Shown here: positions 21,001 to 23,543 of the stretch, piece by piece
Layout: each line of letters starts with the position of its first letter
Numbering within the stretch: the stretch's first letter is position 1
Origin: a virus
Lineage: Duplodnaviria; Heunggongvirae; Uroviricota; Caudoviricetes
Reading direction: 5' to 3' (one strand)
DNA: 23,543 nucleotides
IMG/VR virus record: IMGVR_UViG_2734482776_000003
Position numbers: made by a program

Positions 21001-23543
21001 CATTCACCCCGTTCTCATCCGTCATGAACGGTACGAAATGGATATTCTTTTCCGTTTTGTTTTTATAGCTGCCGTACACCGTCTGGTACGTGGATTCGTT
21101 CTTCTGCTTCCAGAAATACGTCGTGTCCCCGCATATCCAGGGAACACCGCCAGCAGAGCCACCAACGCACTGACCTGCCATATCCGTCAGGTCTGCACGG
21201 AATTTATCAACCAGCGCACCAAACTGTGCTGCGTGATTTGCCGGCGTACCGCCAAAATCAAATTCCCCCTGCATCCACACCACGGCAAACAGCACATTTT
21301 TCGGGTTCTTCTTCAGTGCTGCTTTTGTTCGACCGATAAGGTCCTTATACAGCGGCTTGCCCACACCCCAGCGGGTTGAATTCTCCGAGGCACCACTCGC
21401 GTCACTGTATGTGCCATCAGCTCCGGTGGTGAACGCTGAACCACCACGACAGCACGGAACCAGCAGAATGCCCGCATTCGCCGGTATAAACGGCAGCAGT
21501 TTTTTGGCAATATGCAGCCCCTGCCCCACGGTTCCGTACTGCCCCTTTGACAGTTCCGCTTTCGGATGGTTAAGACGGCTCATGTCCTGCACATCATGCA
21601 GACAATGGTCCGCCGGAATGATGTCGTTATATTTACAGGCGACACCGCCCGGTGTCACCGTACTGCGGCGCGCCAGTTGCTTAATACGCGGGTCCGGACG
21701 GTCATATGTCTCCGGCAGCGGAAGACCTTCACCATACGACATGCCATTTGACTGCCCTGCCAGAACCACAACAAAGTAATACTCCGGGTCGCTGGTGGCA
21801 CTGACAGCCACCGCCTTACCCTCATTACCGGTCACCGCCACTGGTGTGGTGACATCACCTTCCGCCGCAATGGCCTGCATCAGGGTATAAGGCGTGATGG
21901 CCACCGGACTGCCAAATGGCTGCCAGCCCTCCTTCAGTTTTTGTGTCAGTCGTTCAGCAAGGTCTGACGGCGATGCCGCCCTGACCACATCGTAGTGTTT
22001 AAATGCCATGAATCCTCCCGGCCGGGATAATGTTCTGAGTCAGAGAAGGCACGGGCTGACCTCCGGAAACACAAAAGTCACACAGAAAAACAGCCCGCAA
22101 AAAAGAAATACGCCCTTACAGTTGCGCAAGGTGATTACTCTAAGGTATTATTAGGGTGCTGAATAAATTACTTCACGTTTTGTTATTTATTCCTTGCTTC
22201 CTTGCCAACCGCTCTTCCCAGGAGCGGTTTTTTTTTACATGTAAAAAGGCTCCTGCGATGAGGAGCCTGGATGTATGCCTAATCTCTGTATACTGCATGG
22301 TGCCGGGTGCCTCCCGGTGAACAAATGTCCGTGATATCAGTCGGCCACACAGGAAATGATACGATATCACCCCTCCGCACAGGGGGATTCACCATGCCCG
22401 TTTTTTTTAACAAACTCCTCATCAATCAGACAATCATCAACCTCATGAATTGTGAGGAATTTAACATTTCACAACACAGCCTTTTCCCTGCATAAAAAAG
22501 CCCCTCCGGAGAGGGGCTTCGCTACGTGTCTGTTAACCATATGCATGATGCCGGGTGCCTCCCGGTGAGTTCAGTATCAGCACCTGAACCCGCACAGAAA
22601 GGATAGAGTAGAAACACCTGCGCTGATATGCCCCTCCGCTCAGGGGGATTCACCATGCAGAACTTTTTTAACAACTCCCCGTAAGACAGGCAAGCATCAA
22701 CCATCTGAACTGTGAGGAATTTAACATTTCACAACACAGCGTTTTTCCTGCATAAAAAAGCCCCTCAGGAGAGGGGCTGACACTGCGTATCTGTATCATC
22801 ATGAACATGGTGCCGGGTGCCTCCCGGTGAGTCCAGTCTGGTGTCCCTGAACCCGCGTTTGCATTGCCTACAACAGAAAAGATGCAAATCACACCAGTCG
22901 CCCCTCCGCACAGGGGGATTCACCATGCAGAACTTTTTTAACAACTCCCCCTCAGACAGGCAAGCATCAACCATCTGAACTGTGAGGAATTTAACACTTA
23001 ACAACACAGCCTTTTCCCGCACAAAAAAAGCCCCTCCGGAGAGGGGCCGATCGCTATGTATACACCATAAGCAGCATAGTGCCGGGTGCCTCCCGGTAGA
23101 TTCAGCCTGACTACTGAATCTGCGTATTGTGACCATCGCTATGGAGACCATGTCAGACGCCCCTCCGCACAGGGGGATTCACTATGCTGGCTCGTTTTTA
23201 CAAGACTTCCATCGATCAGACAATAGTCCATCAACCGAATTGTGAGTCATTTAACATTTCCATGAGGTAACTGATATCCAGCTAACAATCATCTACAATG
23301 GACGAAGCCAGTTCCAGAACTTGCCCACGGTACAGCAACAACCACTGCATACACATAATTACCACCGGACTCTCTGAACCTGCCTCCTGGCTAACCCCAG
23401 ATACAACACCACCAGTCACAAAAGCATCTTATTCTGAAGTACAACTGCCGTGCGGCAGATACTAAAAGCGCCTGTATGTAACAACATAAATATACAGGAT
23501 ATGTTTTATCCACGGGATATAATTTAGACTGGCCCCCTGAATC

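Follow-up and report, generated by a model that had tools for sequence, protein, structure and literature searches.

STnc100 has been described as a prophage-associated family of small RNAs (sRNAs) of Enterobacterales. The copy located downstream of stx2B is known as EcOnc27 in strain Sakai and as sRNA103 in strain EDL933 (PMC4104026, PMC12711010, PMC7873438). EcOnc27 is crosslinked to Hfq and gives Northern bands of approx. 235 and 247 nt, of which the 247-nt form is destabilised in the absence of hfq; like EcOnc05 (~222 nt) and EcOnc06 (~177 nt), it was detected by crosslinking and analysis of cDNAs with Hfq (Hfq-CRAC) and by Northern blotting (PMC4104026). PasD of enteropathogenic E. coli (EPEC) is Hfq-dependent and Northern-detected, and it forms chimeras with many mRNAs in RIL-seq (sequencing of ligated interacting RNAs; PMC8550237). 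In a 2026 preprint by Zhu, Shabalina, and Storz, it was argued that PasD1, PasD2, and STnc100 share an ancestor; PasD copies often lie directly upstream of a sialate-esterase gene, and both PasA and PasD occur in distal, not tandem, copies (10.64898/2026.05.13.724894). The locus analysed here, a tandem array of four STnc100 genes, lies in a stretch of 23,543 nt from a virus of the Caudoviricetes (IMG/VR record IMGVR_UViG_2734482776_000003), the whole of which is referred to below as the window.

The array occupies positions 22237-23260 on the minus strand and consists of four head-to-tail units spaced at 251-273 bp, in which a repeat search recognised direct-repeat families D1-D3 with a start-to-start spacing of 248-273 bp; column identity averaged over the four aligned units is 74-75%. 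When the whole window was compared with Rfam by cmscan at gathering thresholds, exactly four matches were obtained, all of them to STnc100 (RF02076; curated gathering score, 47 bits) and all on the minus strand. Each match spans model positions 1-206, none is truncated, and the E-values range from 1e-26 to 1e-31. The four genes are:

22237..22426, minus strand: STnc100-family sRNA gene, unit 1 (RF02076, 141.3 bits; 173 bits with model R1, see below)
22488..22686, minus strand: STnc100-family sRNA gene, unit 2 (RF02076, 141.7 bits)
22748..22957, minus strand: STnc100-family sRNA gene, unit 3 (RF02076, 140.8 bits)
23021..23216, minus strand: STnc100-family sRNA gene, unit 4 (RF02076, 119.5 bits)

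The array is thus made up of four genes of a catalogued prophage sRNA family. A first-pass annotation, made from the sequence of the window alone, had recognised four units that share two conserved modules, A and B, and both the repeat search and the four full-length matches confirm this. It had named a match to a known family among the grounds for refutation; the match to RF02076 is of this sort and removes the novelty of the units, although the interpretation stands: the locus holds a new arrangement and new members of a known family, not a new kind of element, and it is the tandem arrangement of four genes that is unusual. Tandem Repeats Finder reported no tandem repeat at the array locus because the copies differ by insertions and deletions. 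A tRNA, the end of an insertion sequence (IS), and a generic intergenic repeat were ruled out as identities of the units; ARAGORN found no tRNA in the window, and the sole inverted repeats are terminator stems.

Minimum free energy (MFE) folds revealed a single architecture common to all four units. A long-range helix, P2 (GCAUGGUG/CACCAUGC), closes a junction containing P3, a variable segment, P4, and P5. P3 is a CCCCC...GGGGG hairpin with the Shine-Dalgarno (SD)-like sequence CGGAGGGG, and P5 is the invariant hairpin CCGGGAGGCACCCGG. In terms of the two modules, module A (GTGCCGGGTGCCTCCCGGTGA) makes P5 and the 3' strand of P2, and module B (CCCCTCCGCACAGGGGGATTCACCATGC) makes P3 and the 5' strand of P2. 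The variable segment between P3 and P4 carries a unit-specific hairpin, and P4 is fixed in position and variable in sequence: it is formed by GGGUUCAG/CUGAACUC in unit 2, by GGGUUCAG/CUGGACUC (RNA sense) in unit 3, and by AGAUUCAG/CUGAAUCU in unit 4, whereas unit 1 has only a weak GGAC/GUUC stem. Unit 1 contains an extra hairpin, GUGAUAUC...GAUAUCAC (22331-22370), within its variable segment. The unit-specific loops are CU-rich (UAUCAUUUCCUGUGUGG in the extra hairpin of unit 1, UUUCUACUCUAUCCUUUCU, GCAUCUUUUCUGUUG, and GGUCUCCAUAG; further spellings are UUUCCUGUGUGG, AUCCUUUCU, CUUUUCU, and GUCUCC). On the 3' side of P5, a short variable single-stranded linker is followed by a GC-rich intrinsic terminator with a U tail.

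Covariance model R1 was built from the four units and used to search 120 IMG/VR contigs that hold the exact P5 core. R1 gave 136 matches in the first 100 sources (the window and the identical locus L001, described below, included) and 23 more in the remaining sources, L100-L121, together with the Sakai locus L122. The 114 distinct sequences of the first search set were aligned; the fit of this alignment relied on a model derived from the four units themselves. Among these homologues, 94.1% of cells are in standard pairs, compared with 44-51% after the 3' partners have been shifted by 1-3 columns, and compensatory change is found in 33 of 39 pairs; the observed values were reached in none of 500 shuffles. 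In particular, all eight pairs of P4 show compensatory change, with as many as six pair types at a position and 95% of cells paired. P5 shows no covariation: three of its five pairs never vary and the other two vary on one side, with 100% of cells paired. Because the alignment had been fitted to the model, P4 was also checked without it, by folding the 34 nt located immediately 5' of P5; the MFE helix ends exactly at the last base in 65 of 74 distinct sequences, and the stems are formed by many unrelated sequences. These results demonstrate a conserved secondary structure, comprising the closing helix, P3, P4, P5, and the terminator, that is backed by covariation.

The first-pass annotation had read the inverted repeats that follow module A as palindromes whose halves changed together, the mark of a selected RNA structure. 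This holds for units 2-4, in which the repeats represent P4, which does covary; however, the hairpin of unit 1 (GTGATATC/GATATCAC) is not homologous to those of units 2-4. Three of the four pairs had been placed correctly, and the first lies at 22331-22338/22363-22370 rather than at 22321/22353. The palindrome proposed in unit 3 does fall at the P4 site, but the conserved helix there is the one given above, not CCAG-T-CTGG. As a separate observation, the unit 1 loop (22341-22357) resembles the proposed PasD2 seed region UAUCAUUUUCCUUGUGAG (L123:483-500), which is at a different place in the RNA; the likeness could be due to chance or to a transplanted module.

The units end in terminators of the following positions:

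22247-22268, minus strand: intrinsic terminator of unit 1, GC-rich hairpin with a T run
22501-22514, extending to 22499-22519, minus strand: intrinsic terminator of unit 2, GC-rich hairpin with a T run
22759-22778, minus strand: intrinsic terminator of unit 3, GC-rich hairpin with a T run
23029-23048, minus strand: intrinsic terminator of unit 4, GC-rich hairpin with a T run

Nine terminator-like sites are found in the region, compared with 1.4 expected from shuffles. Minus-strand terminators had been reported for the first three units, and these are present; all four RNAs, however, have a terminator of their own. Likewise, the array proposed to start at 22280 is real, but its register was shifted, since the unit 1 terminator lies outside that start.

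The 5' ends of the RNAs were placed with the help of PasD2, whose transcript has been mapped to NC_011601 741157-741328 (172 nt; PMC8550237 Table S6). Its first base is the G of GCAUGGUGAAUCC; upstream of this base lie TTGACT, a spacer of 17-18 nt, and T(T)AAAAA. When 28 family members are aligned with PasD2, the -35 element TTG(T/C)CT and the -10 element TGTTAAAA are nearly invariant and align with the PasD2 boxes; distant members have textbook TTGAC-N17-TAAAT promoters at an equal distance from GUGGUGAAUCC. The corresponding sites in the array are:

22404..22433, minus strand: putative promoter of unit 1 (-35 TTGTCT, 18-nt spacer, extended -10 TGtTAAAAA)
22665..22694, minus strand: putative promoter of unit 2, from the alignment (-35 TTGCCT, TGtTAAAAA)
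22935..22964, minus strand: putative promoter of unit 3, from the alignment (-35 TTGCCT, TGtTAAAAA)
23194..23224, minus strand: putative promoter of unit 4, from the alignment (-35 TTGTCT, TGTAAAAA)
22434..22470, ~22695-22731, 22965-23001, and 23225-23260, minus strand: conserved upstream block, (TG)TTAAATnnCTCACAaTTCAG and then a palindrome

By homology to PasD2, transcription would start at G22397 (the G of GCAUGGUG), 22658, 22928, and ~23187, giving RNAs of approx. 160-180 nt, a size that fits PasD (172 nt) and EcOnc06 (~177 nt). The upstream block, with the consensus (TG)TTAAATnnCTCACAATTCAG and a palindrome, precedes the putative promoter of each unit and of most E. coli-type homologues, and is absent from PasD and from distant members. 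Its palindrome is 82% paired, with covariation not above that of shuffles. The block could be a second promoter that gives forms of approx. 215-225 nt, or a regulator-binding site; a second start was considered because EcOnc05 (~222 nt) and EcOnc27 (~235/247 nt) would fit it. A CRP half-site (TCACA) was also sought in the block and dropped, as its TGTGA partner 13 nt away is found in only some units and is absent from most homologues.

Comparison with published probes ties the units to individual RNAs. Unit 1, whose likeness to EcOnc27 lies in the 3' part, is matched without a difference at 22275-22298 by the 3' 24 nt of the EcOnc27 Northern probe, and the P4 loop of unit 2, at 22573-22587, is matched in the same way by the first 15 nt of the EcOnc06 probe. 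From these probe matches and the match at Sakai locus L122, EcOnc05 (Sp4) and EcOnc06 (Sp17) are members of the STnc100 family as well.

The units are mosaic in their make-up. Units 2 and 3 share 91% identity in their promoter, 5', and terminator parts (family D1) but are unrelated in their central segments. A single-copy gene in L116 agrees with unit 1 at 100% identity in the variable and 3' parts and at only 82% in the 5' part, and single-copy genes in L074, L096, and L114 agree with the variable segment of unit 2 at 100%; taken together, the 5' scaffolds of units 1 and 2 show no more than 82-91% identity to those of the genes that carry the identical cassettes. The nearest relatives of the unit 3 variable segment are found in L056 (78%) and in L070 and L098 (both downstream of stx2B) and L075 (77%), while that of unit 4 has no relative above 65% in the sample. 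On sequence comparison, the units are thus distinct alleles that also circulate singly, and the cassettes of units 1 and 2, being present unchanged in single-copy genes of other phage contigs, are maintained as discrete alleles. Recombination between lambdoid prophages fits these data at least as well as duplication and divergence in situ. Because units 2 and 3 share their ends and differ in their centres, and because cassettes are 100% identical where scaffolds are 82-91% identical, it may tentatively be suggested that the array is a modular cassette locus, in which a fixed STnc100 scaffold (promoter, P2, P3, P5, and terminator) serves as a platform for recombination and expression and receives unrelated target-recognition cassettes by exchange between co-resident lambdoid prophages. 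If so, a lysogen could accumulate several different regulators at one site.

Arrays of two to four STnc100 genes recur in other Enterobacterales. When same-strand matches less than 200 nt apart are grouped, the IMG/VR sample contains 109 single genes, 6 pairs, 8 triplets, and 1 quadruplet; a single copy is present in each of Sakai Sp4 and E2348/69. The exact P5 core is found across many Enterobacterales, including Salmonella, Klebsiella, Enterobacter, Kosakonia, Pantoea, Erwinia, Rahnella, and others, with tandem sets of two or three in Superficieibacter, a Pantoea plasmid, and Enterobacter; a few matches in GC-rich Actinobacteria are probably due to chance. Among 50,697 deposited phage genomes, none reaches a coverage of 80% of the array, and no description of such an array was found in the literature mentioning STnc100. 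The fourfold array is thus the top of a recurrent but minority pattern, undescribed as far as searched. A 171-nt junction query matched 1,083 of 5,426 E. coli genomes at a coverage of at least 80%, a figure that is not usable as a count of tandem arrays because non-collinear pieces are joined in it and a single copy scores as two pieces spanning 226-253 bp; true junctions are represented by the single-piece matches alone. In five IMG/VR loci (L020, L044, L064, L090, and L047), a triplet lies directly downstream of a phage tRNA cluster, and its middle copy is strongly degenerate (28-32 bits), which suggests decay of some array members.

A tandem family of prophage sRNAs on the minus strand had been among the candidate interpretations of the first-pass annotation, and it is supported by the full-length STnc100 matches, by covariation, and by the existence of Hfq-bound homologues (PMC4104026, PMC8550237). 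Starting from the observed family membership, covarying structure, genomic position, and promoter-like and terminator sites, we propose, with a probability of roughly 60%, that the array encodes four base-pairing sRNAs that are transcribed independently, depend on Hfq, and act in trans, with targeting segments that differ from unit to unit. In the lysogen, each RNA would be made from its own sigma-70 extended -10 promoter, would be bound by Hfq, and would pair in trans. Stability and Hfq binding would come from the conserved scaffold, the U tail of the terminator being one contact, and the targets of each unit would be recognised by its two variable segments, presumably by base pairing. The CU-rich loops of the units would be the expected seeds for pairing with ribosome-binding sites, and the proposed seed region of PasD is similar. 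Moreover, each terminator would stop transcription entering nanS-p and the holin and lysis genes in the lysogen, and after induction, judging from the lambda late-operon model and the gene order, Q-modified polymerase from PR' would have to read through all of them.

Several points weigh against this proposal. Expression and Hfq binding are argued by analogy, from homologues rather than from this array. Direct targets have been validated for no STnc100 member, and for sRNA103 the reported effects, on fimZ and espA, are those of overexpression (PMC7873438); the seed proposed for PasD is in the 3' linker and comes from weak MEME motifs (E-values of 6.5 and 2.4e3; PMC8550237). The Northern sizes of the homologues form two classes, of ~172-177 and ~222-247 nt (PMC4104026, PMC8550237). 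A generic sigma-70 scan flagged no minus-strand promoter, so that the 5' ends are those given by homology; the unit 1 promoter escaped the scan because its -10 element ends in A, not T. Finally, a P5 that does not covary and a well-conserved P3 could point to protein binding rather than to base pairing.

This last point is the starting point of an alternative in which the invariant SD-like hairpins (CGGAGGGG in P3 and CCGGGAGGCACCCGG in P5) act as a decoy or sponge that titrates a protein or CU-rich sRNAs, with tandem copies raising the dose. P5 is essentially invariant and P3 nearly so even in distant members, which suggests sequence-specific recognition beyond structure, and AsxR and AgvB, which are prophage sRNAs of the same neighbourhood, act as sponges (PMC4104026). 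However, the only protein partner reported is Hfq, and if dose were what mattered, the variable segments would not persist as distinct alleles; moreover, PasD has the 5' half of the scaffold, lacks P5, and still binds many mRNAs. A decoy role is thus considered rather unlikely. In another alternative, likewise considered unlikely, the main action of the units is in cis: they form a stack of terminators that have weak promoters, and the RNAs are by-products without targets of their own. Such a stack would insulate nanS-p and the holin and lysis genes in the lysogen and be overridden by Q, and it would agree with the presence of four strong terminators in the late-gene direction immediately upstream of these genes, with a fifth copy 1.8 kb further upstream in the L001 prophage, and with the lack of a validated target for any STnc100 member. 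Yet it needs neither approx. 130 nt of conserved, covarying P2-P5 before each terminator nor a conserved promoter for each unit, and it does not account for homologues that build up as discrete RNAs bound by Hfq and are found in chimeras with mRNAs, or for a core kept across many Enterobacterales genera and in other contexts. Reiterated units read through by Q, which the first-pass annotation had offered as its other candidate, are compatible with the position of the array inside the late operon, between Q and nanS-p with the lysis genes, but fail to explain the units themselves.

That the units might be genes for small proteins, or else repeats of the REP or ERIC kind, tRNA remnants, or IS ends, is scarcely credible. 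A 128-aa open reading frame (ORF) does span units 3-4, and in O157:H7 genomes some of the homologous copies are overlain by a 'hypothetical protein' call of the Prokaryotic Genome Annotation Pipeline (PGAP). Nevertheless, as had been claimed from the outset, the units are non-coding: ORFs differ between them in frame and length, conservation tracks the base-paired helices with their compensatory changes, no tRNA is present, and the one Rfam family with a significant match, also the best, is a family of sRNAs.

The array lies in the 'moron' slot of a Stx-phage-like lambdoid prophage without stx, between Q and tRNA genes on one side and nanS-p and the lysis genes on the other. The 1.5 kb that contains it is 99.8-100% identical in prophages of non-O157 Shiga toxin-producing E. 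coli, and at least 80% of this query is covered at one place in 87 of 5,426 complete E. coli genomes; PGAP gives no annotation over the array. In FWSEC0010 (O113:H21), whose locus L001 is 100% identical, the order is Q, a DNA methyltransferase gene, tRNA-Ile, tRNA-Arg, a TolA-like gene, a fifth STnc100 copy, a helix-turn-helix gene, the four-gene array, the SASA esterase gene, DUF1378, DUF826, holin, and lysozyme. The fifth copy is full-length (L001:10967-11179, minus strand; 150 bits with R1) and is located approx. 1.8 kb upstream of the array, between the TolA-like gene and a methyltransferase pseudogene; the window ends before its position. The last 19 bases of the window (23525-23543, TAGACTGGCCCCCTGAATC) depart from the otherwise identical L001 exactly there. 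They seem to resemble a terminal inverted repeat of IS2, and an IS may thus have inserted in the source genome at a point just upstream of the array. On the other side of the array, two features lie beyond unit 1:

20045..22009, minus strand: nanS-p, prophage sialate O-acetylesterase (Pfam DUF1737 + SASA + DUF6645), the first protein gene downstream of the array
22120..22236, plus strand: candidate convergent sRNA, homologous to the EcOnc08/21/42 region and antisense to the 5' leader of nanS-p

In L001, the nanS-p gene is labelled 'SASA family carbohydrate esterase' by PGAP. The plus-strand candidate has a -35 element, TTGCGC (22122-22127), a -10 element, TATTAT (22146-22151), a 5' hairpin, the CU-rich single strand CCUUGCUUCCUUGCC, and a strong terminator (22207-22236) that faces that of unit 1. 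Its whole length aligns with the Sakai Sp4 region of the EcOnc08 Hfq peak in both boxes and body; the terminator stem differs from that of Sp4 and is still self-complementary, and the reverse complement of the EcOnc08/21/42 probe matches 22120-22153. By these alignments, it is a homologue of the EcOnc08/21/42 type, convergent with the STnc100 gene; an EcOnc08-like partner is absent downstream of PasD2 in E2348/69. Convergent Hfq-binding sRNA 'dyads' located downstream of PR' were described in at least eight Sakai prophages by Tree 2014 (PMC4104026). AsxR (RF02703) and AgvB (RF02702) were considered as identities of the plus-strand partner and ruled out, as it bears no likeness to the published sequences, which are RNAs of ~51-60 nt with a conserved 3' region, GTATCTCATGC..TTGCCCGAACCCA.TCGGGC (PMC4104026); neither has an Rfam match at gathering score in the window, nor any at E<=10 in 22010-22250. 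PasA and PasC were sought downstream of nanS-p with their published probes, and no match was found.

Elsewhere in the window, a 162-bp tandem repeat (3.7 copies, 96% matching) is present at 9013-9605 within the ORF 8547-11132 on the minus strand. This ORF encodes a phage portal protein (Pfam Phage_portal, residues 54-382), to which the repeat gives a repeated 54-aa C-terminal extension.

In Shiga-toxin-type prophages, STnc100-type sRNAs adjoin stx, nanS-p, and lysis genes. Their links to virulence have so far been made by correlation or overexpression, namely through single-nucleotide polymorphisms downstream of stx2B that predict hemolytic uremic syndrome (PMC12711010) and through fimZ and espA levels (PMC7873438). 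With four or five divergent paralogues at one site, such a prophage lends itself to testing whether different targets are specified by the variable segments, and the array also bears on how prophage recombination assembles repertoires of regulatory RNAs. As PGAP annotates none of them, approx. 1 kb of dense RNA genes is left unannotated in the carrier genomes.

Among the described systems, the array is closest to EcOnc27, EcOnc05, and EcOnc06, with which it shares the full-length model match, the common helices, the convergent-partner layout, and the moron slot between PR'/Q and nanS-p with the lysis genes. In contrast to these RNAs, which are encoded by a single gene per prophage site, the window carries four divergent paralogues head to tail. 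The same holds for the comparison with the dyads of Tree 2014: here, too, a plus-strand sRNA converges on STnc100 between the late promoter and the lysis genes, but the STnc100 side is fourfold. With PasD1 and PasD2 of EPEC E2348/69, the units have in common the position directly upstream of a sialate esterase gene, the promoter, and a 5' half made up of GCAUGGUGAAUCC, P3, and a hairpin like P4. PasD, however, lacks P5, which is disrupted in PasD2, and its longer 3' linker carries the proposed UGUGAG seed, whereas the units keep P5 and have short linkers; scored with R1, PasD2 reaches only 37 bits. Judged by these features, the units are related to PasD without being PasD themselves. Tandem paralogous sRNAs that combine conserved modules with divergent segments are also represented by OmrA/OmrB, PrrF1/PrrF2, and the Qrr sRNAs. 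While those are chromosomal core-genome pairs, the array in the window is prophage-borne and has four members, whose cassettes circulate singly.

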